From Candidatus Omnitrophota bacterium (GTDB lineage: Bacteria > Omnitrophota > Omnitrophia > Omnitrophales > Aquincolibacteriaceae), in the NCBI GenBank assembly GCA_022711115.1, contig JAKLFP010000004.1, positions 112,648 through 176,647 on the forward strand: a DNA stretch of 64,000 bases, read 5' to 3'. The notes beneath the pieces are model-generated. The model did no database searches. It saw only the letters and a list, made by a program, of their open reading frames with translations, and was not told the DNA's origin. Shown in pieces: positions 14,765 through 36,335 of this stretch; position 1 is the first letter of the stretch, and each line of letters opens with the position of its first letter. The position numbers were made by a program, and so were the translations under genes.

Positions 14765-14766
14765 AG

Positions 14767-14949
14767 ATGAGTTTCAGACAGATCATTGCAAACGTATTCG
14801 GGAAGTCTAGTGATCAAAAAGACGCGTATTTGTCGTCGAAACTGAGGGGATCCTACAGGATTCTAGGAATAAAGCCTGGCGCACCCGTCTCTGCGGTCGA
14901 AGTCGCGTATAAGGCCCCGAAACAGCGGTTGGTCGCGGATTTAGAGTAA
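14767..14949 (+). CDS. hypothetical small protein, possible J-domain-like fragment
   Basis: SYRILGIKPGAPVSAVEVAYK resembles the start of a DnaJ J-domain. The ORF stops at the edge of repeat copy A. Confidence 0.25.
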   Translation: MSFRQIIANVFGKSSDQKDAYLSSKLRGSYRILGIKPGAPVSAVEVAYKAPKQRLVADLE

Positions 14950-15050
14950 AAACGGTATCGGTTCTGAAAGTGCCGGGTTAAAGAACATAAAAAAGGCTAG
15001 CATTTTAAATCTGCTGGCCCTTTTGCGTCTGCCAGCAGGTACGTGCCACC
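14948..15050 (+). repeat. ~100-bp palindromic repeat element, copy A
   Basis: About 85% identical to 16984-17080. Contains GCTAGCA-loop-TGCTGGC followed by CCTTTTGCG (terminator-like), plus an alternative pairing CTGCTGGC...GCCAGCAG. Confidence 0.7.
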
Positions 15051-15418
15051 GAACGAATTTGAGGAAAACTGGCTGAAGTAGCAGGAAGCGCGACCGGCTT
15101 TGGAATTGGTCTAGCGGTTGTCCACATGTTAACATTGTCCACAAAGAAATAAAAAAGAACCAAAAAAGAAAGAAAAGGCTTCGAATAATCTTCTTTTTCT
15201 TTCAATTCTTTCTGTCCAGCCCCTTGGGTGCAACTCAATTAATATAGTAAATAATAGCAAATAATAACTTTCTATTGTCAAAATATATTTTAAAAGTTAC
15301 ATTTTTAATATACTTAAAAATAGTTAAGAAATGTATTTAAGAATCAGCTTTATTAAAAAATGTGAAGATAATTTGAAAAAATGGAAATAAAAATCAAATT
15401 GAAAAGGAAGATCGCAAA

Positions 15419-16495
15419 ATGAAAACGAAAAGAGAATTAATGGGTTTTTTTTTCGGTGTAGTTGCAGTAATCCTTCTGAGTGCACTCATCGTACCTGTGT
15501 CGTTTGCGGCAACTCAGCCGACGTCGACTGGCGAACAGCTTCAGCCTGAAAAGCCCATCGACACGGCGAGTCCCGACACTTCCACACAGAACACACAGCA
15601 AGCGTTGAAAGATGCCGTAAGCCAGGCCAACAGCCTTGATTTGCAGGCAACAACTCTGACGGCGCCTAGTGCGCAATCGACGACGGTCACGGAAATCTCA
15701 CCGACCGATTCAAGGCAGGTCACACTGGCCGCCGCGAACACAGTTCCAATTTATCAATTTAAATATAAAAATCCACCGATTGATGTCCTCTATCATCCCA
15801 CTCAAGATTTATTTGATAACTTTTGTCCATTGAAACTTCGGCAATTAGCAGTTTCTCCTCTATATGTGTTTGATGTAGTGAATCTTATTCTTAAAAACAT
15901 CCCACCCCCAGTAGAGATGCTTAAAGCAGCGCAAGAGATTATGGGGAACTTAATGCTTAGGCTAGAGGAAGTGATTAAGCGGGTGGAAGGCTATATAGCT
16001 CAGCAGGAGAATAATATTACTTTGTGGACAACGATGTATGATGCGGAAAAAAGTGCTGTTGCATCAGGTGGCGCTTTTACCATGGCTGATAGCGCTTGGC
16101 TTCAGAATTATAGAAATGCGATGTATGTTTCTTACCAAAATTCCCTGAATGATTTCAGTTACGGGTATAAACAAAGTACTGCCATCTTAACTGTTGATGG
16201 CAAAATGGAAATTAAACAGGATGCATGGAAAAATATGGATAATACAATAGGTAACATTTATTGGTTGCCAATGAAAAGTTATCTCGATAGCTTGGTCAGG
16301 GCGCCAGAAGCAGTAATGTTAGAGGTTCAGATACAAGGTGCTAATCACGCCTTGGATGCTGCTCGAAAGTTCTTGAAAGAGCTAACTGATTTACGCAAAA
16401 CCTATGCGAACATAATAAACGCATTGATTTATAGACAGCAAATAAAAATTGCACCAGATGCCAATGTGATAATCACACCACCAGTTGTCGAATAA
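15419..16495 (+). CDS. secreted hypothetical protein (island cargo)
   Basis: N-terminal TM/signal. S/T/Q-rich linker, then a 250-aa domain of unknown function. AT-rich. Lies between the two repeat copies. Confidence 0.55.
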   Translation: MKTKRELMGFFFGVVAVILLSALIVPVSFAATQPTSTGEQLQPEKPIDTASPDTSTQNTQQALKDAVSQANSLDLQATTLTAPSAQSTTVTEISPTDSRQVTLAAANTVPIYQFKYKNPPIDVLYHPTQDLFDNFCPLKLRQLAVSPLYVFDVVNLILKNIPPPVEMLKAAQEIMGNLMLRLEEVIKRVEGYIAQQENNITLWTTMYDAEKSAVASGGAFTMADSAWLQNYRNAMYVSYQNSLNDFSYGYKQSTAILTVDGKMEIKQDAWKNMDNTIGNIYWLPMKSYLDSLVRAPEAVMLEVQIQGANHALDAARKFLKELTDLRKTYANIINALIYRQQIKIAPDANVIITPPVVE

Positions 16496-16587: not shown

Positions 16588-17019
16588 TTGTTAAGTGGTC
16601 CGCTAATCATAGCTTGTAACTTGCCCCGGTTTTTTACGGATGATAAGTATTTGAGGATCGAAAAGGCTGCCGAAGGCCATCCGCTTTACCCCATGATCGT
16701 TACCGCTCGCTATACTGGGCTCCGTTTGCGGGAATTGATACACCTTGAATGGCAAGATTTTGATTGGGAAAAGAAAATTGTCCGGGTTGAGAATAAACCG
16801 CAATACGGCCACACCGTAAAGAATTATCAAGTCCGAGTAGTGCCTGTATCGGATGAATTGACGGATAAGCTACTGCCCTATATCAAGCGCGAAGGAATTT
16901 GCTTCCCGGTCTATAACACTGTGGAGAAATATTCGGGCGAAGGGTCGAAGCGGTCCATTAAGAATATTTTTGGAAAACGGTACCGGTTCTGTAATGAAAG
17001 TGCTTGGTTAAAGAAATAA
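16588..17019 (+). pseudogene. tyrosine-recombinase (phage integrase family) fragment
   Basis: TARYTGLRLRELIHLEWQDFDWEKKIVRV...RVVPVSDEL matches the integrase catalytic-core box I region. The N-terminal domain and the C-terminal HxxR...Y region are both missing. Confidence 0.5.
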
Positions 17020-17080
17020 AAAAAGCCAGCATTTTTAATCTGCTGGCCTTTTTGCGTTTGCTAGCGGGTACTTGTGTACC
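16984..17080 (+). repeat. ~100-bp palindromic repeat element, copy B
   Basis: GCCAGCA-tttttaatc-TGCTGGC-CTTTTTGCG perfect hairpin plus T-run. Overlaps the 3' end of the integrase fragment. Confidence 0.7.
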
Positions 17081-17333
17081 AATGTGCAAGTATTACGTCG
17101 TCGGAGCTTAATGTCAGCTCCGTACGGCTTCTCGCAATCATTGCCTCGAATAAAAAAGCCTGGTTTTTTGGACGGGGACTCTTATTGAAGAATTGGTAGC
17201 GTGGGCTGTACTCATGCCCTGTGGCATCAGTATCACGCCGTGAGGGCTTTGAGCCCTCTACGGCTTCAGCCCCCGACAACATCAAAAAAAAACCCGACAG
17301 GGCGGAAGCCCTATCGGGTTATGAATGAACTTA

Positions 17334-18654
17334 CTGGCACACTGTTTACACTTTATACCGGACACATAGGTTACACTTTTTTGTCTTATTTTAAAGTGCT
17401 TTTTCTAAAATGAGCCCAAACGGATCTTCTTTGGGAGCGAATTTTCCGCTGGCTTCATCGAAAAATCCAAGGTCATACTCCTTAAAAGAAACCTCCCAGA
17501 TCCCATCCTCCACTAACCGAATTCCCACGGGTTGATTCGCCAAAGCGCAGCTGATATGAATCTTTAGATTCTTTATACAGATTCTGCCACAATGGGTCAC
17601 AAGCATTGTTTTGTCGTGGCCAGGGTAGGTGATATCGGGAAGCCCTCGATAAGGGGTTTGAGATTTTTGATATAAATCGCCCGGGCATTTCATTCCAAGG
17701 GCTTGGTGCGGCCTTTCGAAATTGTACTCCTTCATAAACCGATAAAACTTTTCTTGTTGCTGCAGAAAGCCGAATGCCGGAGGCTGTGTTGCTTCCAGCT
17801 TGAGCGTTCGGTGCATTCTCTCATGCCGACCGTTTTGTTGGGGGCATCCTGGCTCGATCCTCTCGAGTTGAATCCCTAACCGGATCCACCAAACCGAAAG
17901 TTTTGTTAATCCCCAGGCCGAATTCCCGGATGCGAACGGGATCCCATGATCGCTTCGAATGGCCCCGGGAAGGCCATATTCCTTGAAGGTCTCCTCAAAT
18001 ACCCTATAAGCGGTCGTTTCTCGGGTGCTTGTAAGGGCTTCACAGTTAATTAAAAATCGGGTCGCAAAATCAGAAATCGTCAGCGGGTAGCAATAAACCT
18101 TCTTCCCTAATTTAAACTCACCTTTAAAATCAACACACCACAGGTCATTAGCCCCTTTCGGATTGGAAAGATATGTTGCCGTCGCTCGGTAGGGGGATCT
18201 TTGCCTCCGTTTCTTGACAAGATCATGCCGGTCTAATATTTCATGAACTGTGCTAACAGCGGGTAGTTTGATTTCGGGGTGGCGTTTGGAAACTAATTCG
18301 CGGATTTTAGGAGCGCCCCAGTTTGGTTTTTCCCTTTTAAAGCGAACGATCAATTGCTCGATCTCGAAGGGAAGCTGATTGGGATGCTTATGTGGAGCTC
18401 TCGATCGATCAAAAAGGGCCACCGAACCAAACTCATGGTAACGTTTCCAGAGTTTGTATCCGGTGACCCTTGACATTCCAAATTCCCGGCACAATGGCGC
18501 CATCTTTTCGCCTGACAAAAGACGGCCGATAAATTTCGTTCGTTCATCCATCACACATGTCTCCTTCCATGGCATATGCGCCCCCTTTGTTAGGTTCGAT
18601 ATGCCTGAAAGTGTAAACTATGTGCTCAGAATGAACTGTAAACCATGTGCCCGG
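17334..18654 (-). mobile_element. IS481-family-like insertion sequence (~1.3 kb) with compound terminal inverted repeats
   Basis: Left end 17334-17376 (CTGGCACACTGTTTACAC..CCGGACACATAGGTTACAC). Its reverse complement matches the right end 18611-18654 (GTGTAAACTATGTGCTCAG..TGTAAACCATGTGCCCGG). Encloses a DDE transposase gene. Confidence 0.7.
17391..18575 (-). CDS. DDE transposase (HTH + rve integrase core), IS481-like
   Basis: N-terminal HTH (FGMSRVTGYKLWKRY). DDE triad candidates WCVDFKGEF, IRSDHGIPF, NGRHERMHRTLK. Confidence 0.8.
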   Translation of the reverse strand: MPWKETCVMDERTKFIGRLLSGEKMAPLCREFGMSRVTGYKLWKRYHEFGSVALFDRSRAPHKHPNQLPFEIEQLIVRFKREKPNWGAPKIRELVSKRHPEIKLPAVSTVHEILDRHDLVKKRRQRSPYRATATYLSNPKGANDLWCVDFKGEFKLGKKVYCYPLTISDFATRFLINCEALTSTRETTAYRVFEETFKEYGLPGAIRSDHGIPFASGNSAWGLTKLSVWWIRLGIQLERIEPGCPQQNGRHERMHRTLKLEATQPPAFGFLQQQEKFYRFMKEYNFERPHQALGMKCPGDLYQKSQTPYRGLPDITYPGHDKTMLVTHCGRICIKNLKIHISCALANQPVGIRLVEDGIWEVSFKEYDLGFFDEASGKFAPKEDPFGLILEKAL

Positions 18655-18668
18655 AATTTACCGAAACG

Positions 18669-18744
18669 GGTGGGCGACGGGAATTGAACCCGCAACCCCA
18701 AGATCCACAATCTTGTGCTCTAACCAAATTGAGCTACGCCCACC
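18669..18744 (-). tRNA. tRNA-His (GTG)
   Basis: Reverse complement GGTGGGCGTAGCTCAATTTGGTTAGAGCACAAGATTGTGGATCTTGGGGTTGCGGGTTCAATTCCCGTCGCCCACC. Extra 5' G(-1) paired to discriminator C. Anticodon loop TTGTGGA. Canonical T-arm GGTTCAATTCC. Confidence 0.9.
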
Positions 18745-18983
18745 ATGATTCTCATTGATTAAAAAAGAACAAAGAAATCATGGTTGTCTTGGCTTGCCAT
18801 CATGAAAATAAAAAAAAGAGCCAGGACACCACGGTATTCTTGGAGAAAGGCATTATAGCGAAAAAAAGGTTTAAGGGAAGGAAGAAAGCAACGTCCGAAG
18901 AATGGTCCTAATTTCTCCTTCATCTAATGCTAATTGGGGCTATAATGCATCATGTATTTCAACTTTAGGCAAGGAGATCTCAT

Positions 18984-19187
18984 ATGAAAGCATTTTGGGT
19001 TGGGCTCTTGGTGCTGGTGATGGTCATTGTTCTTTCCGGGATCGGGATTCTTTTGTTGCCGCTTTTTTTGGTGCTTGGTATTTTTCTTCGTCTGGTGGTA
19101 GGTCTGTTTGTTCTTATTTTTGTGATCTGGGCGGTAGGGCAGGTCACGCTTCTTTTGATCGAATTGCTTTCGGCGAAACCCAAATAG
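18984..19187 (+). CDS. small hydrophobic membrane protein
   Basis: 67 aa, two predicted TM helices. No motif. Located in the mobile-element remnant. Confidence 0.3.
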   Translation: MKAFWVGLLVLVMVIVLSGIGILLLPLFLVLGIFLRLVVGLFVLIFVIWAVGQVTLLLIELLSAKPK

Positions 19188-19205
19188 CCAAAGAGGCCCG
19201 AGTCT

Positions 19206-19469
19206 ATGCAACGGCTTATGACAGCCAAGCAGGTCAGTGAGCTTATTGAGGTCAAACCCTCCACGATTTATCAGTGGGTGCATCTTGGGCTTATCCCTTA
19301 TGTGAAGCTCGGGAAATGTGTCCGTTTCAAAAAAGCCGAACTTTTCCGTTGGATCGATAAAAACCTCCGCAAAGAGCGTGTCTCGTTCAAATCCGTAGAA
19401 CGCACGCTTGGTAAACATCCCTCTGCGAAACAAAAAGAGATCTTTGATTTGTTCGGTAAGGAGTCTTAG
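19206..19469 (+). CDS. AlpA/excisionase-family HTH DNA-binding protein
   Basis: MTAKQVSELIEVKPSTIYQWVHLGLIPYVKLGKCVRFKKAELFRWI is the typical AlpA/Xis-like helix-turn-helix. Confidence 0.6.
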   Translation: MQRLMTAKQVSELIEVKPSTIYQWVHLGLIPYVKLGKCVRFKKAELFRWIDKNLRKERVSFKSVERTLGKHPSAKQKEIFDLFGKES

Positions 19470-19533
19470 CCGGCCAGGGAACAGGTAGTTGCTTCCAGTC
19501 GGTTAAGAGGTTTATAATAATGCCGTAAATGAA

Positions 19534-25645: not shown

Positions 25646-27619
25646 TTATAAACGGTTTTGAGAAAGTTCCGCGTTATTTATTTTACTCCACTCTTGAGAT
25701 AATCGTTTGGCCCTGTCCCATTCCTGCATTTGTTCCAGTTTCTCAAGTTGTTTTTGAGCGGCGGTGACGTTACCTGTTTGGGCATAAGCTTCACCGAGGT
25801 CATAAATCATTTCCGCATTATGAGGATCCAGCGAGCAAGCCTTCTGAAGAAGGTTGATGGCTTTTTCGAATTCTTTGCGGCCTCGAGCTATTAACCCGAG
25901 ATTATAGTAAGCAGGAGATAAAAAAGGGTTGATCTTTATGGCTGCTTCAAGATTTGTGACGGCCTCAGCGATATTTCTCTTTCGGATATTAAAGATTCCT
26001 AAATTGACATAAGCAATGTAATAAGTCGGGAACTTCTGTATAGCTTTCTGGAGTATTTCAATCGCAAGATCCTGTTGGCCCATCGCGTCGTAGAGAAGTC
26101 CTAAATTGTTGTACGAGTCATAAAATTCGGGATCCGATTCGATGGCTTTTTGATAGAGAGGCAAGGCTTTTTCGAAATTTCCGCTTTGATGAAACAAGGT
26201 AGCAAGATTGAAATAGCTAATGGCAAAGTGAGGATCTTTTTCCAGGGCCTTCTCGTAAGACTCTTTGGCTCTTATGGGGTCATGCAAGCTGTGATAGAAG
26301 TAATTCCCCAAATTGTTGTAAGGTCTTGCTTTATTCGGCGATTTTTTAATGACATCTTCCCACAGCAACTGTTCCGACCCCCAAATATGATTGCGGGTGT
26401 AGGCCATGCACGAAAAGATCATAACGACCAGAGAACCCGCCACCATAAAGTAAGACGCCTTCTCTAAAAAAGAAAATAGGCCGATCCCTAGCAGTAATGC
26501 GCATCCGACAAGGGGAAGATACATGCGGTGTTCGAAAATGACGTCCTCAAGCGGGATGACGGATGATTCAACGCTCAAGGTTAGAAAGAACCAGAAGATC
26601 GAAAATGTGATAAAACGGTTTTTTTTGATCGTCCCAAGGGCTGCTGCCAATAACGTCCCCAGCAAAAATAAGCAAGCCAAAGTTTTTGGCTCCCACAAAG
26701 AATGTGCTGTCGGGTAGTCATAATCAAAATTCTGATTCACCGGCAGGAGGAAGAGACGCAGATAGGTGCATAAAACGTTAAGTTCCGTTAAAAAGTAATC
26801 GCCGCGTGGGAGTGCCTTTATGCGGATGGGAAGAAAGTTTTTGGAGTGAATGTTGTAGCTGGCGGCTTCTGAATGAACAAAATAGGGGATAATGGCCATA
26901 GTGGCTAAAAAGGGGATCAGGCGAAGAAGATTCTTTTTGGAAAAATCAAAAAACAGAAACTCAACCAACAAAAGAGCCAAAGGCAATGTAAAAGCAGTTT
27001 CTTTGCAAAACATGGCCGCAAGATTCATTCCAAAGGCCATTCCGTAATGGATCTTGTTTTGAGTCAGTCTTGCTTTGAGGTAAAAAATAATGGTTCCCAA
27101 ATAGAAAAAAGCAGTTAGGGAGGTCATGCGCTGAACAATGTAGGTTACCGATTGGGTTTGGAGCGGGTGCGACAGGAAAATTAAGGAACTGAAGGCTGCC
27201 AGAAAATATCCCGCTTTTTCAGGGTATTTTCCTTTCATTTTAGGGGTTATCAGGAGAAGCGAGATGAGAAAGTAAACCCAAATGGAGTTCAGTAGATGCA
27301 CCGCCAGATTGAAAAGGTGGTAGCCCCACACCTGATCCTTGCCCAGAGCATGATTGATTGCAAAGGACACAAAAGGAAGAAATCGGATTTTGTTATTCGA
27401 AGACCAGATCGCAGGAATGTCCCATGTCTTATAAAGGGAGATATTTTGTTTGATGTTCATACTGTCATCAAACAGGAAGGGAACATGCCAGGTATTGGAA
27501 TAAATCAGGAGCCCGAGAATGAAAATGGCAAAGCATAATAATGGAAACTTATTTTTAAAAATAAATTCCGGTATTTTTTTTTCATTTCGTGATGCGGAAG
27601 TCATTCGTTTTGTCATCAT
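25646..27619 (-). CDS. TMTC-like polytopic membrane protein (GT-C/PMT_2-like N-domain + C-terminal TPR array)
   Basis: About 400 aa with roughly 10 TM helices and an FDD motif after TM1, then at least 7 TPR repeats. This architecture matches eukaryotic TMTC O-mannosyltransferases and bacterial DUF1736-TPR proteins. Confidence 0.65.
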   Translation of the reverse strand: MMTKRMTSASRNEKKIPEFIFKNKFPLLCFAIFILGLLIYSNTWHVPFLFDDSMNIKQNISLYKTWDIPAIWSSNNKIRFLPFVSFAINHALGKDQVWGYHLFNLAVHLLNSIWVYFLISLLLITPKMKGKYPEKAGYFLAAFSSLIFLSHPLQTQSVTYIVQRMTSLTAFFYLGTIIFYLKARLTQNKIHYGMAFGMNLAAMFCKETAFTLPLALLLVEFLFFDFSKKNLLRLIPFLATMAIIPYFVHSEAASYNIHSKNFLPIRIKALPRGDYFLTELNVLCTYLRLFLLPVNQNFDYDYPTAHSLWEPKTLACLFLLGTLLAAALGTIKKNRFITFSIFWFFLTLSVESSVIPLEDVIFEHRMYLPLVGCALLLGIGLFSFLEKASYFMVAGSLVVMIFSCMAYTRNHIWGSEQLLWEDVIKKSPNKARPYNNLGNYFYHSLHDPIRAKESYEKALEKDPHFAISYFNLATLFHQSGNFEKALPLYQKAIESDPEFYDSYNNLGLLYDAMGQQDLAIEILQKAIQKFPTYYIAYVNLGIFNIRKRNIAEAVTNLEAAIKINPFLSPAYYNLGLIARGRKEFEKAINLLQKACSLDPHNAEMIYDLGEAYAQTGNVTAAQKQLEKLEQMQEWDRAKRLSQEWSKINNAELSQNRL

Positions 27620-27739: not shown

Positions 27740-28498
27740 TTAAATAAGAGAAAGACCGCCGTCGGCAATGAGCACTTGCCCGACGATCCAGGAAGATTCC
27801 GGAGAACAGAGGAAAGCGACGACGCGGGCAAGGTCTTCGGGTTTTCCGATCCGGCCGGCCGGGGTGCGTTTCAAGACTTCTGTTTTAAAAGTATCAAAAA
27901 AGGGAAAGGCTTTTAAGGCGTCTGTATCCACTAGACCGCCCGAGACACCATTCACACGGATGCCTTTGGGCATCAGTTCCACACCCAAATAACGGATCAT
28001 GCCTTCTAAGGCCGCTTTTGAAATTCCGATGGCACCGTAATTGGGAATATAGCGGTGAGATCCCAAACTTGAAATAGCGATGATGGAACCCTCTTTTTTG
28101 GGCTCCATGATCGGAATGACTTTTTGGACCAAGGAAAGAAAGGCTTTTGTGTTGATATTGAACGAAAGGTCCCACTGATTCATTTTGAGTCGATGGACAG
28201 GTTTGAACGCGCCGAGAGCCGCGTTATGAATCAGAATGTCGATCGTCCCGAAGGTTTTAAGAACATTTTCAATCAAAGCGGGATGGGCATCAAAATCGCC
28301 GACATTAGTTTGAAAAATATCGGTTTTGACGCCCTTAGCTTGGATTTCTTCCGCAGTCTTTTTTGCAGCTTCTTCATTTTGAAGATAATTGATCGCGATA
28401 TTCACCCCTTCCTCTGCAAGACGAAGGGCCGTAGCCTTGCCGATACCGCGTGATGCTCCCGTAATGAGAGCCGTTTTGCCTTTCAGATGCGTTTTCAT
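27740..28498 (-). CDS. SDR-family enoyl-ACP reductase, FabL-like
   Basis: TGASRGIGKA cofactor motif. Y-x6-K catalytic spacing (YGAIGISK), typical of FabI/FabL rather than FabG. SSLGS.RY..NY...G.SKAALE...RYL.VEL.PK.I.VN.VSGG..DTDALK.FP closely follows B. subtilis FabL. Start taken at MKTHLKGK. Confidence 0.65.
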   Translation of the reverse strand: MKTHLKGKTALITGASRGIGKATALRLAEEGVNIAINYLQNEEAAKKTAEEIQAKGVKTDIFQTNVGDFDAHPALIENVLKTFGTIDILIHNAALGAFKPVHRLKMNQWDLSFNINTKAFLSLVQKVIPIMEPKKEGSIIAISSLGSHRYIPNYGAIGISKAALEGMIRYLGVELMPKGIRVNGVSGGLVDTDALKAFPFFDTFKTEVLKRTPAGRIGKPEDLARVVAFLCSPESSWIVGQVLIADGGLSLI

Positions 28499-28622
28499 GA
28501 GCGATAAGATATCAGAAAAGATCAAAAATCGAAATAAAAACTTAGAGTCATTCATAAAAGTCAATCATTTCAATAAAACCCCATAATGTTCAAAGGAGTT
28601 TTTTAGGGCACAAGAACTTATC

Positions 28623-29345
28623 GTGGTTCATCGTTTTTATCGAGTTTTCAAAAAAGAAGCTTTGGGCAAAAAGATAGCATGTGCTATAATTTCCTGCCCA
28701 AAAGCAGAACTTAATGTGAATTCTATCTATCAGGGACTACGGTCTTTTCAGCGCAAAATACTGGATGGTTTGGTACGGCACTTTGCCCATCATGCATTGG
28801 AATTAAGAGCTGAAAAATTTACCAGGCTTTTTGAAAATCAGATACCCGAAAGAAGCCGGATCTTGGATCTGGGCGGGGGTTGGGGTTTTTATGCAGAGCC
28901 TCTCAAACAAAGGGGCCATGAGCATTTGATCCTGGATGTCGTGAAACCAGGGTATCAAAAAGCCCCTGTGGTGCTCTATGAGGGCACAAAGATCCCGTTT
29001 CCGGATCAAAGTTTTGATGTGACGCTTCTTGTGACCATGCTTCATCATGTGGACGATCCGGAAAGCCTTTTTCGTGAAGTTTATCGCGTGACCAGAAAAA
29101 AAGTCGTGGTGATCGAAGATCTTTATCATCATGCGGTTGGTCGTTTGTGGACCATAGGCCGTGATCGGCTTTTAAATATGGAATTTATGAGTCATCCGCA
29201 TCAATTTCGGAAACATGATGAGTGGCTTGTTTTTTTTCAGAAACAGAAATTCGCAATACTTGATTTTAAATCGGCCTATACTTGGTTGTCGGGTTTCCGT
29301 ATCTTGAACGGCGTTTATATTTTGGAACCAAATAAAAATTTATGA
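28623..29345 (+). CDS. class I SAM-dependent methyltransferase
   Basis: Motif I ILDLGGGWGFYA. Motif II acidic LDVV. Methyltransf_11-like size. Confidence 0.7.
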   Translation: MVHRFYRVFKKEALGKKIACAIISCPKAELNVNSIYQGLRSFQRKILDGLVRHFAHHALELRAEKFTRLFENQIPERSRILDLGGGWGFYAEPLKQRGHEHLILDVVKPGYQKAPVVLYEGTKIPFPDQSFDVTLLVTMLHHVDDPESLFREVYRVTRKKVVVIEDLYHHAVGRLWTIGRDRLLNMEFMSHPHQFRKHDEWLVFFQKQKFAILDFKSAYTWLSGFRILNGVYILEPNKNL

Positions 29346-29749
29346 CAACGCTCGCGATCGAAAAAGTGCTCTGGGTCAAGGAAGGCGAGGGAATTGCGGC
29401 TTGCGGTAAAATCCCTGCTGATTCGGAATTTTTTAAAGATCATTTTCCGGCTTTTCCGGTTCTTCCGGGTGTTTTAGCGCTTGAAATGCTCAAGCAGACC
29501 GCGGAGCGCTATCTGGATTCTATGGGGGAGCAACGCGGGCAGCACTATTTTTTAAAACAGATTCGCGCGACACGTTTTACAAAGTACCTCCGTCCCGGAG
29601 ACGAATGGGAAAGCAGATTGACGCTTTTACAGTATTCGGACGAAGAAACGGTTTGGGATGCAAAATTATTGCACCATCAGGAAGTGGCAGTTTCGGCGAA
29701 ATTAATTTTGGCTAAAGTTAAGAATCCGCAATCATCAGCATTATCCTAG
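29342..29749 (+). CDS. hot-dog fold beta-hydroxyacyl-ACP dehydratase, FabZ-like
   Basis: DHFPAFPVLPGVLALEMLKQ matches the FabZ HFPGNPVMPGVL..E..AQ active-site region. Start overlaps the MT stop (ATGA). Confidence 0.65.
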   Translation: MTTLAIEKVLWVKEGEGIAACGKIPADSEFFKDHFPAFPVLPGVLALEMLKQTAERYLDSMGEQRGQHYFLKQIRATRFTKYLRPGDEWESRLTLLQYSDEETVWDAKLLHHQEVAVSAKLILAKVKNPQSSALS

Positions 29750-29765
29750 GAGGAGAAAGAGAATC

Positions 29766-30173
29766 ATGGAAAACGAGCTTTTTGTAAAAGTTCAGCAGAC
29801 ATTAGCCGGAGCCTTGGGTGTGGAACAAAGTGAAATCACCCCTGAAGCATCCCTTAAGCGCGATCTCGGTGCCGAATCGATAGACTTTATTGACATTATT
29901 TTTCGGCTTGAAAAAACTTTTGATATCAAAATCCCGAGCGGCGATCTCTTTCCCAGCCATCTGCTGAATGACGAGAAGTTCGTTAAAGAGGGGATAATCA
30001 CCGCAGAAGGACTCAACGAGCTCCGCACGAAACTCCCTTATCTCGAATTAGGTGAATTTTCCAAAGACCCGCAAATTACCAAGCTGGCGGATCAATTCAC
30101 CGTCAATATGATACTTCGTTATCTTCAGGATCGTTTAGGCAAGCATTCCTGCTCTGATCAATGCTGCTCGTAA
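29766..30173 (+). CDS. acyl carrier protein with an unusual ~55-aa C-terminal extension
   Basis: DLGAESIDFIDI carries the phosphopantetheine-attachment Ser. 135 aa against about 78 for canonical ACP. Cys-rich tail HSCSDQCCS. Confidence 0.65.
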   Translation: MENELFVKVQQTLAGALGVEQSEITPEASLKRDLGAESIDFIDIIFRLEKTFDIKIPSGDLFPSHLLNDEKFVKEGIITAEGLNELRTKLPYLELGEFSKDPQITKLADQFTVNMILRYLQDRLGKHSCSDQCCS

Positions 30174-30547
30174 AGCAACAACACGCTGCGCTAAAGGGCG
30201 TTGGCGTTGATCTCATTTCCTGCTTGCGAATCAAACAATTCCTAGCGCGTCATGGTGATTATGTTCGTGCGCGATTTCTGAATGCCTCCGAACGCCGTTC
30301 TTTCAAGCGATTGTCTTTACAGAACTTTGCCGAACTTTTTACGGCGAAGGAGGCTTTCTTTAAAGCCTGCGGGGAAGCATGGATGGGGCTTGAGGGGTTT
30401 CAGGGTATGCGCATGAAACGGCGGAGTGGTGATTTTTTTGAAATGGAATGGCGTCCCGCCAGACACTCAAAAGTGATTTATCGCGGAGAAGGCCATTTTT
30501 TCCGTAGCGGTGATCTTGTCGGCGCGCAAGCGATGATCTGGAAATAA
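30161..30547 (+). CDS. AcpS-type 4'-phosphopantetheinyl transferase (holo-ACP synthase-like)
   Basis: GVGVDLISCLRI (compare AcpS GIGTDIVEI.R) and KEAFFKA (compare KEAVSKA). 128 aa. Confidence 0.6.
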   Translation: MLLVKQQHAALKGVGVDLISCLRIKQFLARHGDYVRARFLNASERRSFKRLSLQNFAELFTAKEAFFKACGEAWMGLEGFQGMRMKRRSGDFFEMEWRPARHSKVIYRGEGHFFRSGDLVGAQAMIWK

Positions 30548-30548
30548 T

Positions 30549-30986
30549 ATGCGCTGGCTTCTTCTGGATAAAGTCCTCTCGATTCACAAAGGTAAAAAAG
30601 CGATTGCCTCTTCTAAAGTTCCCCAGGCTCCTTATAGTTCCGAGATCCTCCTTGTCGAAATGATGGCACAAGCCGGTGGTTTGCTTGTGGGTGCCGAGAG
30701 CGATTATCAGAAAGATCTTATTTTTGCCAAAATCGAAAATGTGACTTTTACGGAAATGCCGAAATCCGGGACGCCGATTCAAATCGAAACTTGGGCCGAC
30801 GGCCTTGGCCCGGACGGCGGTTGGTTGGAAGGCCATGTGACTTGTGCGGAGGGGGTTTTGGCTAAAGGAAAATTTCTGCTGATGACCGTGGGGCGCCTTA
30901 TCCCTGAGCACGCGAGTTCCATTACGTTTCATGAGGCTTTTATGAATTATTTCAAAGTTCGTGAAAAAATTTTTGTGGAATCATGA
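30549..30986 (+). CDS. second hot-dog fold dehydratase-like protein
   Basis: 145 aa. LLVEMMAQAGGLL core typical of FabA/FabZ/ApeI-like hot-dog proteins. Confidence 0.5.
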   Translation: MRWLLLDKVLSIHKGKKAIASSKVPQAPYSSEILLVEMMAQAGGLLVGAESDYQKDLIFAKIENVTFTEMPKSGTPIQIETWADGLGPDGGWLEGHVTCAEGVLAKGKFLLMTVGRLIPEHASSITFHEAFMNYFKVREKIFVES

Positions 30987-32269
30987 GCGCGAAACGCCGG
31001 GTGGTTATCGCGGGATTGGGCGCTATTACGGCCTGTGGCAAAGGGTGGGAGCCTTATTGGAATGCCGCGATTCAAGGTCGCTCTGCCATTGTCAGTGCCA
31101 AACCGCTCAACCTCGGCAACTTTCCGTTTAAAAATGCCGGCATGATTCCTGATTTTGACGCGAAGGAATTCGTTGAGAATCGAAAATCGATCAAGGTGAT
31201 GTCGCGAGAAATTCAGCTGGCTGTGGGGGCCAGCCGTCTGGCTCTTCGGGATGCGAAACTTTCTCCGGAGAATTACGATCCGACGCGCATTGGAGTGACT
31301 CTCGGAACCGGGATCATCAATAATGATCTCGATGAGATCGGTATCGGTTTTCGGAATAGTTTGGATGAATCCGGGCATTTTTCCATGAATAAATTCGGAC
31401 AGGAAGGTATCCGGTCGCTTTTCCCTCTTTGGTTTTTGAAATATCTTCCGAACATGCCTGCTTGTCATGTTTCGATGGTGAACCAGCTTCGCGGTCCGAA
31501 CAACACCGTGACAACTTCTTCTGCGGCAAGCACCCAAGCGATCGGAGAAGCCTATCATGTGATTGAACGAGGTGATGCGGATGTGATGCTCGCGGGAGGG
31601 ACGGATTCTAAGCTCAATGCCATGGGCATTTCCCGGTTGCACCTTCTCGGATTTTTGTCTCAGCATGAAGATGCCCCCGAGAAAGTTTATTGCCCCTTTG
31701 ATGAAAAGCATGATGGGATTGTACTCGGAGAAGGTGCGGGCATTATGGTGCTGGAGTCTTTGGAAAGTGCGAAAAGGCGCGGGGCGAATATTTATGCCGA
31801 AATCATTGGCTATGGTTCTTCTTCGGATTTTAATTATGACCCGCGCGATGCGGATGATTTTACGGGCAAGCGTGTAGCCATCCGGCGAGCCCTTGAAGAT
31901 GCCGGACTTGAGCCCGAGGACGTGAATGTGATCGTTGCAAACGGAAGCGGGATCCCCCAGGAGGATGTCCAGGAATCGCTTGCGATCCAATCTTTTTACG
32001 GACAAACTTTCGGAAAGCTTCAAGTCACCGCAGTGAAACCTGTGACAGGGCATCTGGTCTATGGGTCAGGGAGTGTGGAGGCAATGGTCGCTGCCTTAAC
32101 CACCAAGAAAAAACTGATCCCTCCGGTCATCAATCTTGTAAAGCCGGATTCGAATTGCCCATTGCCTTTTGTTATCGGGAAGACAAAATCCTGTGAAGTG
32201 AAGGTAGCGGTTATCAATACATTCGGTTTTGGCGGGCAAAATGCATCCTTGGTGTTTCAACATGTCTAA
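30983..32269 (+). CDS. ketosynthase-like chain-length-factor partner (KS-beta, non-canonical active site)
   Basis: Thiolase fold. At the FabF ATACTSG position it has TTSSAAS (Cys to Ser). HGTGT is replaced by ANGSG. Second His retained (GHLVYGSGSVE). Confidence 0.75.
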   Translation: MSAKRRVVIAGLGAITACGKGWEPYWNAAIQGRSAIVSAKPLNLGNFPFKNAGMIPDFDAKEFVENRKSIKVMSREIQLAVGASRLALRDAKLSPENYDPTRIGVTLGTGIINNDLDEIGIGFRNSLDESGHFSMNKFGQEGIRSLFPLWFLKYLPNMPACHVSMVNQLRGPNNTVTTSSAASTQAIGEAYHVIERGDADVMLAGGTDSKLNAMGISRLHLLGFLSQHEDAPEKVYCPFDEKHDGIVLGEGAGIMVLESLESAKRRGANIYAEIIGYGSSSDFNYDPRDADDFTGKRVAIRRALEDAGLEPEDVNVIVANGSGIPQEDVQESLAIQSFYGQTFGKLQVTAVKPVTGHLVYGSGSVEAMVAALTTKKKLIPPVINLVKPDSNCPLPFVIGKTKSCEVKVAVINTFGFGGQNASLVFQHV

Positions 32270-33560
32270 GCGACGCGTGGTTGTGACAGGTATGGGTGCT
32301 GTGACGCCATTGGGCAACAATCTCAAGGATACTTGGCTGCGTATCACGCAGGGAAAATCCGGGATAGGTCCGATCACGCTTTTTGACGCAAGCCGTTTTC
32401 CGACGCGAATCGCGGGAGAGGTGAAAGGATTTCCTTTCGAGAAGTGGGTGGAGCACGACCCGCCGCTTGCTTGCGCGACACGAAGCACATTTTTCGCGCT
32501 TCAAGCCGCTGCGGAAGCTTATAAAGACGCCGGGCTCAGGCCTTTTTGTGTGAATCCGAACCGTTTTGGCATTTATTTCGGGGCGGGGGACAGCGGTATT
32601 GATTTCGAACCTTTTCTAAAAACTCTTTTACCGTCTTTTACGACAAGTGGCAGCGAAATTATTGATAAAGAAAAATATCTGGTGAATTCCAGTCAGCATA
32701 TGAGCGCTCTCCGTGAATTGGAAAGCCAGCCTTTTATGACCGTGACCCACCTGACGCGTCTTTTCGATATCCGGGGACCTGTTTCTAATTGTCTGACAGC
32801 TTGCGCGGCATCTTCCCAAGCGATTGGCGAAGCTTTTGAATGGCTCAGGCGCGGGGATGCAGATGTGATCATGGCCGGAGGAACGCATTCCATGATCTAT
32901 CCGATGGGAGTGGCGGGTTTCAGTTTGTTGACGGCGCTTTCCACGCGCAATGATGCGCCGGAAAAGGCATCCCGGCCTTTTGATAAAAAACGTAATGGTT
33001 TTGTAATCGGTGAAGGTTCCGGTGTTTTAATTCTTGAGGATTTGGATCATGCGCTCCATCGTCAGGCCCAGATTTACGGTGAAATCGTGGGGTATGGTTC
33101 CACTGCCGATGCTTACCGGCTTACGGATATGGACCCGGAAGGCAAGGGAGCTTCCCGGGCTATGGAGATTGCACTTGAAAAAGGCGGGCTTGGGCCTGAG
33201 AATGTGGACTATATCAATGCGCATGGCACATCAACGGTAGTGAATGATTCTCTCGAAACGTTGGTGATCAAAAAAGTGATGAAAGAATATGCGCCGAAGA
33301 TCCCGGTCAGCTCGACAAAATCCATGTTAGGCCATATGATCGCAGCGGCGGGGGGCGTGGAAGCGGCGTTTTGCTTTTTAGCGATGCGCGACTCAATCCT
33401 TCCGCCGACCATCAACTACGAAGAACCGGATCCCGATTGCGATCTGGATTATGTTCCCAATATGGCACGGCGTGCGGAAATTGCTGTGACACTGTCGAAC
33501 TCTTTTGGATTCGGCGGACAGAATATTTGTTTAGCGATGAGGAAATACAATGGCAAATAA
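32262..33560 (+). CDS. beta-ketoacyl-ACP synthase (KS-alpha, FabF/FabB-like)
   Basis: Active-site Cys in LTACAASSQAIGEA. HGTST present. Second His GHMIAAAGGVEA. Start ATG 32262 overlaps the CLF stop (ATGTCTAA). Confidence 0.85.
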   Translation: MSKRRVVVTGMGAVTPLGNNLKDTWLRITQGKSGIGPITLFDASRFPTRIAGEVKGFPFEKWVEHDPPLACATRSTFFALQAAAEAYKDAGLRPFCVNPNRFGIYFGAGDSGIDFEPFLKTLLPSFTTSGSEIIDKEKYLVNSSQHMSALRELESQPFMTVTHLTRLFDIRGPVSNCLTACAASSQAIGEAFEWLRRGDADVIMAGGTHSMIYPMGVAGFSLLTALSTRNDAPEKASRPFDKKRNGFVIGEGSGVLILEDLDHALHRQAQIYGEIVGYGSTADAYRLTDMDPEGKGASRAMEIALEKGGLGPENVDYINAHGTSTVVNDSLETLVIKKVMKEYAPKIPVSSTKSMLGHMIAAAGGVEAAFCFLAMRDSILPPTINYEEPDPDCDLDYVPNMARRAEIAVTLSNSFGFGGQNICLAMRKYNGK

Positions 33561-34644
33561 ATTGATTTTTATGACTGGTGCAACCGGAGTTCTCGGTCAA
33601 GACCTGATCAAAGAACTTCTTGAAACGACAGATGCGGATATCGCGATCCTTGCGCGTGCGAAAAACAGAAAATCTCATGATGAACGCGTTAGAAAGATTC
33701 TCAAATCAATCGGATTGGATGCTCATATGGGAAAGCGCATCCGTGTTGTGGAAGGTGATGTGACGCAGCATAAGTTCGGGATTACCAAAGAAAATCTTGC
33801 CTTTCTCGAAAAAGAAGCAAAGGTTTTTTATCATATTGCTGCGCTTACGGCGCTCAACGGTACCGAGAAGGAGTGCCAGCAAATCAATGTGGGGGGCACG
33901 CAGCACGCACTGGAACTGGCATGGGATCTTCGCAAGAAAGGCAAGCTGGAGCGGTTCGTTTATTTCAGTACCGCATTCGTGGCCGGCAGTGTCTGGCAAC
34001 ATTGTTCGAAGGAGGATGAATTGCCGGAAAAACCGAAGTTTGCAAATTACTATGAATCCAGCAAGTACCAGGCTGAAAGCAGGGTTCGCGAATCCATGGC
34101 GAAAGGGTTGCCGGTGACGATCATCCGGCCGAGTATTGTGGTCGGACATTCCGAGACCGGTGAAGTTTCGGATTTTAACGTGATCTATCCGTTTTTTAAA
34201 TTGTTCGCTCACGGGGCCATTTCAAAATTACCGACGCATGTTGAAAACACATTTAATATTGTCCCCATTGATTTTGTGATTAAGGCAACGGCCACGATCG
34301 TAAAAAATCCTAAAAGCATCAATAAAACCTTTCATTTAGTATCTCCTCATCCTCCTTCGATCGGCATGCTTTTGAAACTGGCAAAAGATGAATACCCGAA
34401 AGTGCCATCGATCGAAGTGATGGATATCAAGGATTTTCAAAAAACAAAATTGAACGCGCAGGAACAAATGGTTTTTACGATTATGGAGCCTTATCTCGGC
34501 TACTTGAACGGGGACCTGACCTTTGACATGAGTAATACCCGGGAGATTCTTCGCGGGACTAAGGTTTTACTTCCAAAGACCGATTATAAATTTCTTAAGA
34601 CAATGATTCATTATGCTGTGAAAGCGGGCTATCTAGTCATCTGA
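33550..34644 (+). CDS. stand-alone thioester reductase domain protein (NAD_binding_4 / fatty acyl reductase-like)
   Basis: FMTGATGVLGQDL (GxTGxxG). YYESSKYQAESRV (YxxSKxxAE). Length and motif spacing match terminal R domains. Confidence 0.75.
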   Translation: MANKLIFMTGATGVLGQDLIKELLETTDADIAILARAKNRKSHDERVRKILKSIGLDAHMGKRIRVVEGDVTQHKFGITKENLAFLEKEAKVFYHIAALTALNGTEKECQQINVGGTQHALELAWDLRKKGKLERFVYFSTAFVAGSVWQHCSKEDELPEKPKFANYYESSKYQAESRVRESMAKGLPVTIIRPSIVVGHSETGEVSDFNVIYPFFKLFAHGAISKLPTHVENTFNIVPIDFVIKATATIVKNPKSINKTFHLVSPHPPSIGMLLKLAKDEYPKVPSIEVMDIKDFQKTKLNAQEQMVFTIMEPYLGYLNGDLTFDMSNTREILRGTKVLLPKTDYKFLKTMIHYAVKAGYLVI

Positions 34645-34673
34645 TTTTTTGGCCCATAACGGAGGTAGGTGCG

Positions 34674-35033
34674 ATGAAAAAAACAATGATGTCGATTTTG
34701 CTTCTGGCGATTTTCGGAATGTTCACTTCTTTTGCGATGGCGGAGTCTTCTTATGATCTGGATCCGGCGTCTCCGGTTGAGCAATTGGATGATACGGTTT
34801 CCAGCAATGCCCCTGCGGCTACGGTGAGCGATACGATGAATGCCGAGGACACGACAGTTCAGAGTGAAGTGGAGAAGAAGGAAAAGAAAGAGAAAAAAGA
34901 GAAGAAAGAAAAAAAAGGAAAAAAGAAAGAAACAAAGAAAAAAGCCAAATCCGCCAAGAAGAGCATGAAAAAAGCCGGCAATACCGGTATGAGCGCGAAG
35001 GCACATAAGGCGAAAAAGCAACAGGTTCAATAA
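34674..35033 (+). CDS. secreted lysine-rich low-complexity protein
   Basis: Sec signal (…SFAMA-ESS), acidic middle, then KEKKEKKEKKEKKGKKKETKKKAKSAKK tail. Last gene of the operon before a strong terminator. Confidence 0.5.
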   Translation: MKKTMMSILLLAIFGMFTSFAMAESSYDLDPASPVEQLDDTVSSNAPAATVSDTMNAEDTTVQSEVEKKEKKEKKEKKEKKGKKKETKKKAKSAKKSMKKAGNTGMSAKAHKAKKQQVQ

Positions 35034-35056
35034 GATAAGACAGTTTAATTTTATGA

Positions 35057-35099
35057 GAGGCGTTGTTTCAAGCGTTTGCTTGGAGCAACGCCTTTTTTT
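35057..35099. terminator. rho-independent terminator (bidirectional position)
   Basis: GGCGTTG-20 nt-CAACGCC followed by TTTTTTTG. Sits between convergent genes. Confidence 0.8.
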
Positions 35100-35102
35100 G
35101 AT

Positions 35103-36335
35103 TTAACGCCAATGGGTGGGGCGCTTTAGGATCGCCATTTGCAAGGCATCCAAAAGGATCATGAAGAGGATCAGGGCTGCGAAGGGATGAAGAAAGGCGT
35201 AAGCTTTTTTTGCTTTGACGATACTGTAAGCCTTCCATGCGGTGGCGAACATAATTCCCAGAATCGCGAGGGTAAGAACCATGGGAACAGAAAGGGCAGT
35301 TGTTTTGGCGAGTAAGCAGATGAATGCGATGAAGGGAAAGACAGAAAAAAAGAAGACGCTTAAAGCACATCTCAAAAGAGGCAACGGTTTTTGCTCAAAA
35401 CCATGGAGAAAGATTCTTCGCCAGCCTCGCCAGATCGAGCCATAGGAGTCATACATTCGAGTGCCGTAAATATCCATCCCAAAGGCACAGATTCCGCGGG
35501 CGCCTATTTTTTTGGTTTTCTTCATAAGAGCAAAATCCTCCAGAAATGCTTCTTTAACGGAAGCGTGGCCGCCCATTTTTTGATAATGCTCCTTACGAAT
35601 GAGCATGTATTGTCCGTTGCCGAAGTAAACCCTGGATTTCGGATCATTGATCTTTTGAACCGGAAACCACAAGCCGGTATAGCCCATGGCGCATGGCTGC
35701 ATTAAAAATTCCCAGAAACTGTCCGCCAGGCAGCGCGGAAGAAGCGTTAAAAGATCCACCCCATTTTTTTCCGCGAAGGCAACTGCCGCAGTCACGCTTC
35801 CGGGTTGGTGGCGTGTGTCCGCATCCGTAAAAAGGAGCCAGTCGCCCCCAGCGTAATAGATGCCGAGATGAAGTGCGAAGTTCTTGCCGGTCCAGCCGCC
35901 GGGCGTCTGCGGCGTGTTCAGGTATTTAAGCCGGATATTCGGATCTGTTGGGAGATCACCCAAAGCAATTTGTTGTGCGCCGAGAGATTTCAAAATATCT
36001 TCGGTCTTATCCTGGGAACAATTATTAATGACAAGGATCTCGTCTCCGTCATGCAATTGAGGCAGGAGAGATTGAACACAATCTCCGATATTTTTTTCTT
36101 CATTTTTGGCCGGAATTAAAACCGTAACTTTCCCAACGCGGGGTTCCTGGTCCTGACAAGTGAGCCTGGGAGCCTGTTTGAGCTCCGAGAGGGCACGCCA
36201 GCTTCGATAGACCCATCCGGCAAGAATGATGAGGAACACTAAGGATGAAAGGAGTCGTAACGTTTCCATATTATTTGGAATCATAACATAAAGGTCAAAC
36301 AGACAAAGCAAAATATCCGTAAACAACGAAGTCAT
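35103..36335 (-). CDS. membrane-anchored GT2-family glycosyltransferase (DPM1/ALG5/GtrB-like catalytic core, HpnI-like topology)
   Basis: N-terminal TM pair. VLIPAKNEEKNIGDC...ILVINNCSQD. DAD motif FTDADTRH. C-terminal TM helices with SIWRGWRRIF ((Q/R)xxRW-like). Confidence 0.75.
   Translation of the reverse strand: MTSLFTDILLCLFDLYVMIPNNMETLRLLSSLVFLIILAGWVYRSWRALSELKQAPRLTCQDQEPRVGKVTVLIPAKNEEKNIGDCVQSLLPQLHDGDEILVINNCSQDKTEDILKSLGAQQIALGDLPTDPNIRLKYLNTPQTPGGWTGKNFALHLGIYYAGGDWLLFTDADTRHQPGSVTAAVAFAEKNGVDLLTLLPRCLADSFWEFLMQPCAMGYTGLWFPVQKINDPKSRVYFGNGQYMLIRKEHYQKMGGHASVKEAFLEDFALMKKTKKIGARGICAFGMDIYGTRMYDSYGSIWRGWRRIFLHGFEQKPLPLLRCALSVFFFSVFPFIAFICLLAKTTALSVPMVLTLAILGIMFATAWKAYSIVKAKKAYAFLHPFAALILFMILLDALQMAILKRPTHWR

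Follow-up and report, generated by a model that had tools for sequence, protein, structure and literature searches.

A recurrent Omnitrophota gene cluster with a FabF-type ketosynthase, a Cys-less partner and a predicted thioester reductase: a possible route to fatty-alcohol-based envelope lipids

A stretch of 64 kb of the Candidatus Omnitrophota contig JAKLFP010000004.1 (hereafter the window) was analysed here, with the focus on a gene cluster located at positions 27740 to 36335. An earlier note on this DNA had described the locus as a compact type II fatty acid synthase (FAS)/polyketide synthase (PKS)-like lipid cluster, and family scans agreed: the cluster encodes a ketosynthase (KS) with a non-condensing partner, two hot-dog proteins (DH1 and DH2), a FabL-type enoyl reductase of the short-chain dehydrogenase/reductase (SDR) superfamily, a dedicated acyl carrier protein (ACP) with a 4′-phosphopantetheinyl transferase (PPTase), and a terminal thioester reductase (TR). 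A methyltransferase (MT) and a membrane glycosyltransferase of family 2 (GT2) complete the set (Table 1). The reading preferred here, for which the case stands about evenly balanced, is that of a dedicated type II FAS-like line in which a saturated chain would be built on a special ACP, released by reduction, glycosylated by the GT2 and exported. The eleven open reading frames (ORFs) of the earlier note were all reproduced by the ORF list at their coordinates, and a protein with 100% identity to the KS partner is encoded in a Candidatus Omnitrophota metagenome-assembled genome (MAG), on a 281-kb JGI contig.

Table 1. Genes and features of the cluster; positions are those of the window.
Feature	Position	Strand	Family match or remark
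FabL-type enoyl-ACP reductase (SDR)	ORF 27740-28564; public gene call starts 28555	-	divergent from operon
MT, class I SAM methyltransferase, first gene of the operon	28623-29345	+	Methyltransf_11 55.8 bits
DH1, FabZ-like hot-dog dehydratase	29342-29749	+	FabA Pfam 44 bits; FabZ model 65.7 bits
ACP, 135 aa, attachment Ser38	29766-30173	+	PP-binding 46.5 bits, residues 8-62 only
PPTase, AcpS-type 4′-phosphopantetheinyl transferase	30161-30547	+	ACPS Pfam 45.7 bits
DH2, degenerate hot-dog protein	30549-30986	+	no Pfam match; FabZ model E 8e-7
KS partner, chain-length-factor-like, 428 aa	30983-32269	+	ketoacyl-synt N and C domains
KS, catalytic FabF-type beta-ketoacyl-ACP synthase	32262-33560	+	ketoacyl-synt N and C domains
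TR, stand-alone thioester reductase (predicted)	33550-34644	+	NAD_binding_4 187.4 bits
Lys-rich signal-peptide protein	34674-35033	+	no Pfam family
Intrinsic terminator, common to the convergent operon and GT2 gene	35055-35096		19-bp stem, 8 G-C pairs, then T-run
Membrane GT2, lipid-glycosylating kind (predicted)	35103-36335	-	Glycos_transf_2 79 bits; Glyco_transf_21 42.3 bits

The start/stop overlaps from which translational coupling had been proposed were found in the sequence, with ATGA at the MT/DH1 and DH2/partner junctions and ATGTCTAA at the partner/KS junction. Moreover, the ACP and PPTase genes overlap by 13 nt and the KS and TR genes by 11 nt, and a gap of 1 nt separates PPTase from DH2. 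The strong terminator claimed between the convergent genes was likewise present. Genes for FabD, FabH, FabG and PlsX were not found in the cluster, and other fab genes were detected neither in the window nor in any fetched Omnitrophota flank.

The distribution of the cluster was surveyed in one genome per GTDB species, which yielded 80 loci that were mapped by tblastn. As the earlier note had suggested looking for, homologous clusters recur in related genomes: the order FabL(-)-MT-DH1-ACP-PPTase-DH2-partner-KS-TR...GT2(-) was found, with proteins 46-84% identical, in about 20 further Omnitrophota genomes counted at species level, so that the arrangement is a gene cluster and not a product of chance. 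These loci, about 20 besides two copies of the source contig, are termed group A, and their partner proteins are 46-80% identical to that of the window. With flanking genes, and extras in brackets, the group A order reads lnt-[aldo-keto reductase]-FabL(-)-MT-DH1-ACP-PPTase-DH2-partner-KS-reductase-[membrane desaturase]-GT2(-)-[HAE3/MMPL]-lysS-lolC/lolD. DH2 is present in 19 of these loci, MT in 17, and PPTase, FabL and GT2 in 16 each; the aldo-keto reductase was found in six loci, the membrane desaturase in three and the HAE3/MMPL transporter beside GT2 in most. Median identities to the window are 70% for KS, 65% for ACP, 64% for FabL, 59% for the partner and 58% for the reductase, next to 75% for LysS and 49% for Lnt. 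The cluster always lies between lnt and lysS-lolCD. Due to this fixed chromosomal place and the core-gene-like identity, vertical inheritance is favoured over a mobile secondary-metabolite island, and by these sequence criteria the cluster looks like a phylum-wide part of the Omnitrophota core genome.

The subclade of the window (L005, L007, L009 and L010) is without the aldo-keto reductase and the MMPL transporter, and in their places the window carries a TPR membrane protein, a response regulator, RluA and VanZ. The statement of the earlier note that MMPL export genes are absent thus held for the window and failed for most relatives, in which MMPL adjoins GT2; the transporter of the relatives scores 200 bits on the HAE3 model and is related to HpnN. 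The TPR membrane protein of the window (25646-27619, minus strand) consists of 657 aa with a polytopic membrane N-terminus and a C-terminal TPR region, has no homologue in the other loci and sits where deeper group A relatives carry the aldo-keto reductase.

The active site of the KS (Cys/His/Lys/His) is intact, as had been read before, and the replacements described for the partner were also verified, with Ser at the position of Cys163 and Asn at that of His303. The KS reaches 481.6 bits on the fabF model TIGR03150 (cut-off 493.75), passes the FabF subfamily model NF005589 with 471.6 bits (cut-off 387) and aligns to Bacillus subtilis FabF with 390 bits; the partner is 36% identical to it. Among 118 partner homologues the Cys163 position is occupied by Ser in 97, Ala in 18, Cys in two and Thr in one, and never by Gln. 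Asn stands at the His303 position in 114 of them, Lys335 is invariant and His340 is retained in 89. The nearest solved relatives of the partner are FabF proteins with 275 bits, and the other listed ketosynthases, including those of ishigamide (177 bits) and actinorhodin (KS/chain-length factor, about 166 bits), score well below. In a neighbour-joining tree all module KS proteins form one clade, sister to housekeeping FabF, and all partners form a second clade which spans Omnitrophota and Planctomycetota and lacks the Cys throughout. Judged by these scores and the tree, KS and partner are both FabF-derived, and we infer that they work as a heterodimer.

An aromatic type II PKS with a KS-alpha/KS-beta pair was rejected as an identity of the cluster: Gln never occurs at the Cys position, cyclase genes are absent, and the actinorhodin KS/chain-length factor match of about 166 bits compares with 275 bits for FabF. 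Plasmid records gave only ordinary FabF genes as matches of the partner and no similar cluster.

The Planctomycetota members of the partner clade show the pattern Glu/His/Lys/Asn. FabF paralogues without active-site residues were noted in Planctomycetota in 2009, and the same Glu/His/Lys/Asn pattern is given there for Rhodopirellula baltica NP_866153 (Rattray et al. 2009, Table 2, PMC2649909). In Pirellulales (L071, L073 and L077 of Pirellulaceae, and many single-gene matches among L044-L084) a Cys-less FabF paralogue with this pattern stands alone or within a few kb of a housekeeping fabD-fabG-acpP-fabF operon. These loci are without the special ACP and DH genes and match the R. baltica paralogue of 2009.

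The two hot-dog proteins differ in their active-site residues. The DH1 motif HFPxFPVLPGVL...E, with catalytic His and Glu, is present in nearly all of 35 aligned sequences, among them all copies of group A. In group A DH2, the segment of the His motif is deleted and the Glu (EMMAQ) is retained; several DH2 proteins of Planctomycetota still have the His. A search for solved relatives of DH2 gave none better than E 0.05. The active site of FabZ combines a His from one subunit with a Glu from the other. For this reason a DH1/DH2 heterodimer with one working site is proposed, in which DH2 would probably be the non-catalytic partner of DH1.

The SDR scores 296.6 bits on the NCBIfam FabL model NF005975 (cut-off 328), which is the best model by about 90 bits. 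Among solved structures it is closest to B. subtilis FabL (3OIC), with an end-to-end alignment of 235 bits that includes the Y-x6-K motif; the best FabG reaches 165 bits. By homology it is therefore probably a true FabL-type enoyl reductase. The true start of the gene is probably the Met at about 28498, which gives a protein of about 252 aa as in relatives. Besides the 16 group A loci, FabL also adjoins the module in a variant of the cluster described below as group B1. In one group A locus (L017, 5627-8175) a gene for a B12-binding radical SAM protein (DUF4070; weak match to TIGR04072, ‘lipid biosynthesis B12/rSAM’) lies between FabL and MT, and the FabL reading frame of this locus appears broken.

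The earlier note had compared the cluster with aryl-polyene (APE) clusters and had considered a polyene product. Like the APE system of Escherichia coli CFT073, the cluster is of type II and combines a KS and a chain-length factor with two hot-dog dehydratases, MT and GT2, and in relatives an MMPL exporter; unlike APE clusters, which have neither enzyme and possess their own ketoreductase, it holds an enoyl reductase and a thioester reductase. Every protein was compared by BLASTP with the E. coli CFT073 reference cluster (C_RS05565-C_RS05650). Orthology was not found: the KS is 41% identical to housekeeping FabF, 34% to ApeR and 28% to ApeO, the 428-aa partner has no match to ApeC (240 aa), and DH1, DH2, GT2 and MT gave none to ApeI, ApeP, ApeJ and ApeB. 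The kinship is hence architectural only. An ApeI-like Pfam match on DH1 is contained in precomputed annotation; a fresh Pfam scan gave FabA only, and BLASTP gave no match of DH1 to E. coli ApeI or ApeP. Among all called genes of the window and the group A loci, Pfam annotation revealed no aryl ligase (ApeH), thioesterase (ApeK), acyltransferase (ApeA/D) or LolA-like protein (ApeL), and it upheld the absence from the cluster of an aryl-starter ligase, ketoreductase, thioesterase and LolA that had been stated before. A pathway to an aryl-polyene-like or other polyene pigment, released by reduction, for which the shared layout and the precomputed ApeI-like match speak, is therefore considered very improbable: orthology and the accompanying APE genes are missing, both KS proteins are closest to FabF, and a polyene is at odds with the conserved FabL neighbour, since a true enoyl reductase would saturate the chain.

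At 135 aa the ACP has the length given in the earlier note, which had described it as having a Cys-rich tail; the extra length was found to be due to an insertion and not to the tail. Relative to AcpP, about 44 residues are inserted between helix III and helix IV, with the consensus ...PSGDLFP..LLND..FV..G.IT.EGL.EL..K.PY....F..DP... The insertion is conserved in group A and in the groups B1 and B2 described below, and was also read in L004, L017, L026, L032 and L064. In an AlphaFold2 model (pLDDT 87.5) it appears, at high confidence, as a hairpin and two helices, and the tail (residues 128-135) as disordered. All matches in the PDB are ordinary ACPs of 65-83 residues, and none covers the insertion. 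Confined to this clade, without conservation and disordered in the model, the tail was discarded as a functional feature.

For the TR, which the earlier note had taken for a thioester reductase and not for a sugar epimerase, the assignment was strengthened by three lines of comparison. First, the protein scores 187.4 bits on NAD_binding_4 (cut-off 20.1) versus 63 bits on Epimerase, the highest of the sugar families. Second, TIGR01746 matches over its whole length (171 bits, E 4e-50, model positions 2-371 of 371; curated cut-off 213). Third, the best solved relative is the reductase domain of MxaA (4U7W, 117 bits), followed by reductase domains of PKS, non-ribosomal peptide synthetases (NRPS) and carboxylic acid reductases, and the five best solved relatives are all thioester or acyl-CoA reductases. 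The motifs GxxGxxG and YxxxK were read in the sequence. In plasmid records, most of the full-length relatives are NRPS terminal reductase domains. Orthologues of the TR are confined to Omnitrophota. Only 265 database proteins were matched at E 1e-10, and each of the 120 best shows 52% identity or more. The TR is thus predicted to reduce an acyl thioester with NAD(P)H to an aldehyde or alcohol. It also matches the Pfam families Epimerase, 3Beta_HSD, RmlD and GDP_Man_Dehyd, and weakly HpnA, which would fit a nucleotide-sugar epimerase or dehydratase that makes the sugar donor of the GT2, with the acyl chain leaving the ACP otherwise. Given the gap between 187 bits and at most 63 bits, the whole-length TIGR01746 match, the identity of the solved relatives and of the full-length relatives elsewhere, and the overlap of the TR gene with the KS stop codon, this explanation is regarded as extremely improbable.

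A stand-alone homologue of the TR with 30% identity was found on Granulicella tundricola plasmid pACIX901 (L088, 6160-13207). It adjoins genes for an adenylate-forming enzyme, a nucleotide-sugar-binding glycosyltransferase, an ABC transporter and a LolA-like outer-membrane lipoprotein-sorting protein, a set that is possibly another route for making, glycosylating and exporting a fatty alcohol.

The GT2 exceeds the cut-off of Glyco_transf_21 (21.7), the ceramide glucosyltransferase family. With 155 bits on HpnB (cut-off 379) and 138.5 bits on CruG (cut-off 600), it is related to both and a member of neither, and its similarity pattern points to the kind that glycosylates lipid hydroxyls, as HpnB and CruG do. 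In group B1 the GT2 gene is also linked to the module, at a different position, and because the linkage persists through this rearranged order a functional link of GT2 and module is probable. The MT, which is absent from groups B1 and B2, has as its only named matches the DVU_1556 family (40 bits) and BioC (27 bits), both weak, and gave no informative family or solved-structure relative. The Lys-rich protein has an acidic N-terminal half and a Lys-rich C-terminal half with (E/K)KK repeats. It belongs to no Pfam family, and homologues were found on near-identical contigs only and in none of the other group A loci; it was dropped as a cluster member and, contrary to its listing in the earlier note, is probably not part of the system.

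Beyond group A, two variants of the module were found. Group B1 (L022-L034, e.g. L026 4760-14647) comprises Omnitrophota and Planctomycetia-labelled MAGs and shows the order GT2(-)-FabL(-)-hexapeptide acyltransferase-DH1-[FabG]-ACP-[PPTase]-DH2-partner-KS-HAD phosphatase-class III aminotransferase. It is without reductase and methyltransferase, and its HAD phosphatase is MtnX-like; this gene content suggests a different release route, possibly to an acylated amino compound. Group B2 consists of Planctomycetota, including the cultured Kolteria novifilia Pan216, and retains the core only (DH1-FabG-ACP-DH2-partner-KS). A core module of DH1, insertion-bearing ACP, degenerate DH2, Cys-less partner and FabF-type KS is thus common to Omnitrophota and Planctomycetota; in the latter it is accompanied by other release enzymes, and the set of reductase, methyltransferase and GT2 is specific to Omnitrophota group A.

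It was also considered that the cluster serves these reduced-genome bacteria as their main, or even their only, fatty acid synthase, with TR, MT and GT2 as side branches. Its fixed place among core envelope genes (secA, lnt, lysS, lolCD), a conservation like that of housekeeping genes, a KS that falls just short of the fabF equivalog threshold and exceeds that of the FabF subfamily model, and the lack of other fab genes in the window and in the Omnitrophota flanks are all in keeping with this. However, FabD, FabH, FabG and PlsX are not encoded at the cluster, the ACP insertion is absent from AcpP, the module KS clade is separate from housekeeping FabF, and the reductase is translationally coupled to the KS, which would direct flux to reductive release. 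Moreover, the Planctomycetota module coexists with a full fab operon: in a Phycisphaerae genome (L064) a complete plsX-fabH-fabD-fabG-acpP-fabF operon and the homologous module stand back to back, and for this reason the module is clearly additional to an ordinary synthase there. In Omnitrophota the line probably also runs beside an ordinary fatty acid synthase, the coexistence having been seen in Planctomycetota only, and the role of main synthase is judged improbable. A housekeeping type II FAS operon was rejected as the identity of the cluster on account of the absent FabD, FabH and FabG and of the ACP, which has 135 aa with the insertion, not about 78 aa as AcpP.

For the preferred reading, a dedicated line with reductive release, the following route is proposed. 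The PPTase of the cluster would activate the insertion-bearing ACP, and the heterodimer of FabF-type KS and Cys-less partner would elongate the chain with malonyl units. The intermediate would be dehydrated by DH1 paired with the His-less DH2 and the chain saturated by the FabL enoyl reductase, and ketoreduction and malonyl loading would be supplied by housekeeping FabG and FabD. The TR would then free the completed chain from the ACP, as a fatty aldehyde or alcohol; the overlap of its gene with the KS stop codon is the reason for assuming that it captures the output of this line. In the six group A loci with an aldo-keto reductase, this enzyme could complete the reduction. The membrane GT2 would add a sugar to the lipid hydroxyl, the HAE3/MMPL transporter of most relatives would export the product to the envelope, and the MT would tailor the product at an unspecified position. 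Glycosylation and envelope export are the simplest continuation, since GT2 stays with the module and pairs with HAE3/MMPL, and reductive release to an aldehyde or alcohol followed by glycosylation, as the earlier note had suggested, remains the best reading; for its ‘polyprenol-like’ glycolipid no support was found. An alkyl glycoside with a saturated, possibly very long chain, or a related fatty-alcohol-based envelope lipid, is predicted as the product, and this prediction shares the evenly balanced standing of the reading as a whole. That the chain is long is speculation by comparison with AcpM and with very-long-chain fatty acid and heterocyst precedents.

Several observations weigh against this route. 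The cluster encodes neither a ketoreductase nor a malonyl transferase, and the scores for reductase, FabL, HpnB and CruG all lie under the curated NCBIfam cut-offs. One group A locus (L011) has the operon but no FabL or GT2 within 10 kb, and three (L017, L018 and L020) are without DH1. Since the GT2 also accompanies the module in group B1, where a reductase is missing, its acceptor need not be the reductase product. Finally, the product and all members of the cluster are known here from genes alone, and the MT has no assigned place in the route. Some of these points agree with a different fate, in which the reductase product goes to wax esters, ether lipids, hydrocarbons or amines and the GT2 uses another acceptor or an intermediate of the module. 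In its favour are the reductase-free group B1 with its GT2, hexapeptide acyltransferase, HAD phosphatase and class III aminotransferase, the location of the GT2 gene on the strand opposite the operon, and the locus without a nearby GT2. On the other hand, no wax synthase, alkylglycerone-phosphate synthase, aldehyde decarbonylase or aminotransferase was found in or beside any group A locus, and the GT2 of the 16 group A loci is adjacent and belongs to families that glycosylate lipid hydroxyls. Such a fate is therefore thought rather unlikely, and a link from reductase to GT2 is the one we infer.

In agreement with the earlier note, the gene set matches no characterised pathway: such synteny was not found in the literature, and literature on this gene set, on lipids or fatty acid synthesis of Omnitrophota and on non-anammox ‘ladderane’ clusters yielded no characterised match. 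Besides the APE clusters, three known systems bear a partial likeness. The heterocyst glycolipid island of Nostocales (hglE/C/D/B, hetI, hglT, hgdBCA) comprises KS/chain-length factor, dehydratase, enoyl reductase, thioester reductase, PPTase, a glycosyltransferase acting last and an exporter (PMC11804610). The chemical logic is the same, i.e. chain building, reductive release, a dedicated PPTase, addition of the sugar last and envelope export. The hgl system is, however, a multidomain PKS with its own acyltransferase (AT) and ketoreductase (KR) domains, an ACP-reductase fusion (HglB) and an ABC/TolC-type exporter, whereas the present cluster consists of discrete FabF-derived proteins without AT and KR, and has FabL, MT, the insertion-bearing ACP, a GT2 of the HpnB/CruG/GT21 kind and, in relatives, HAE3/MMPL. 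By domain architecture it may be described as a type II analogue of hgl and not as a family member.

The rhizobial acpXL-fabZXL-fabF1XL-fabF2XL cluster makes C26-C30 chains for lipid A and encodes no ketoreductase, enoyl reductase or malonyl transferase (PMC5613085); the missing activities presumably come from the cell’s own fatty acid synthase. Both clusters combine, within one operon, two FabF paralogues with a FabZ paralogue and an ACP of their own. They differ in release, which is carried out onto lipid A by the acyltransferase LpxXL in rhizobia and would be due to the thioester reductase here, and in the PPTase, FabL, MT and GT2, which the present cluster has of its own. Furthermore, Cys-less FabF paralogues next to additional ACP and FabZ genes are also found in divergent FabF and ‘ladderane-type’ clusters of Planctomycetota and other phyla. 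Those of anammox bacteria contain, in addition, radical SAM and phytoene-desaturase-like genes, which are absent here. ‘Ladderane’ calls by antiSMASH in Omnitrophota MAGs have been reported with function unassigned (PMC9902471); these calls and the 2009 description of FabF paralogues were the only relevant items that the literature yielded.

Every protein of the cluster is of a known superfamily, and the chemistry has analogues elsewhere. New are the apparent place of the cluster in the core genome throughout Omnitrophota, the combination of a FabF-derived KS and partner with predicted reductive release and a lipid-type GT2, and the module of Cys-less partner, insertion-bearing ACP and degenerate hot-dog protein shared by Omnitrophota and Planctomycetota. 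Omnitrophota are widespread, uncultured and very small bacteria, and no paper on their lipids was found; a non-glycerol, fatty-alcohol-based glycolipid as predicted here could serve as a biomarker of the phylum and could bear on how these bacteria build their outer membrane. For the Cys-less FabF proteins first noted in Planctomycetota in 2009, the results suggest a role as partners of FabF-type KS together with a new kind of ACP. For genome mining, the cluster may be among the ‘ladderane’ calls in Omnitrophota, and the aryl-polyene label does not fit. A bolder interpretation, which is offered as tentative and doubtful, is that of a signature envelope lipid of Omnitrophota: a very-long-chain, methyl-tailored alkyl glycoside (two-headed if the MT primes as BioC does), built on the insertion-bearing ACP and placed in the outer membrane by the HpnN-like transporter. 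As part of this joint interpretation, and with the same reserve, the insertion-bearing ACP may represent a specialised, previously undescribed ACP class. If true, it would mean that uncultured nanobacteria invented heterocyst-glycolipid chemistry independently, in a type II form, and would provide the first function for the module of Cys-less FabF, insertion-bearing ACP and degenerate hot-dog protein.

Two further regions of the window were noted. At about 16600-19500, a phage-type integrase fragment, an rve-family transposase and small HTH genes lie beside tRNA-His (18668-18743), and the region looks like a small mobile-element insertion between unannotated genes (about 13263-16495) and prfB-secA. 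Additionally, two membrane proteins (1545-2765 and 6760-8055, both minus strand) match the DIE2/ALG10 glucosyltransferase family PF04922, which is of eukaryote type and unusual for bacteria, and a GDSL lipase gene and a gene for a Zn-dependent alcohol dehydrogenase (ADH_N/ADH_zinc_N) are located between them.

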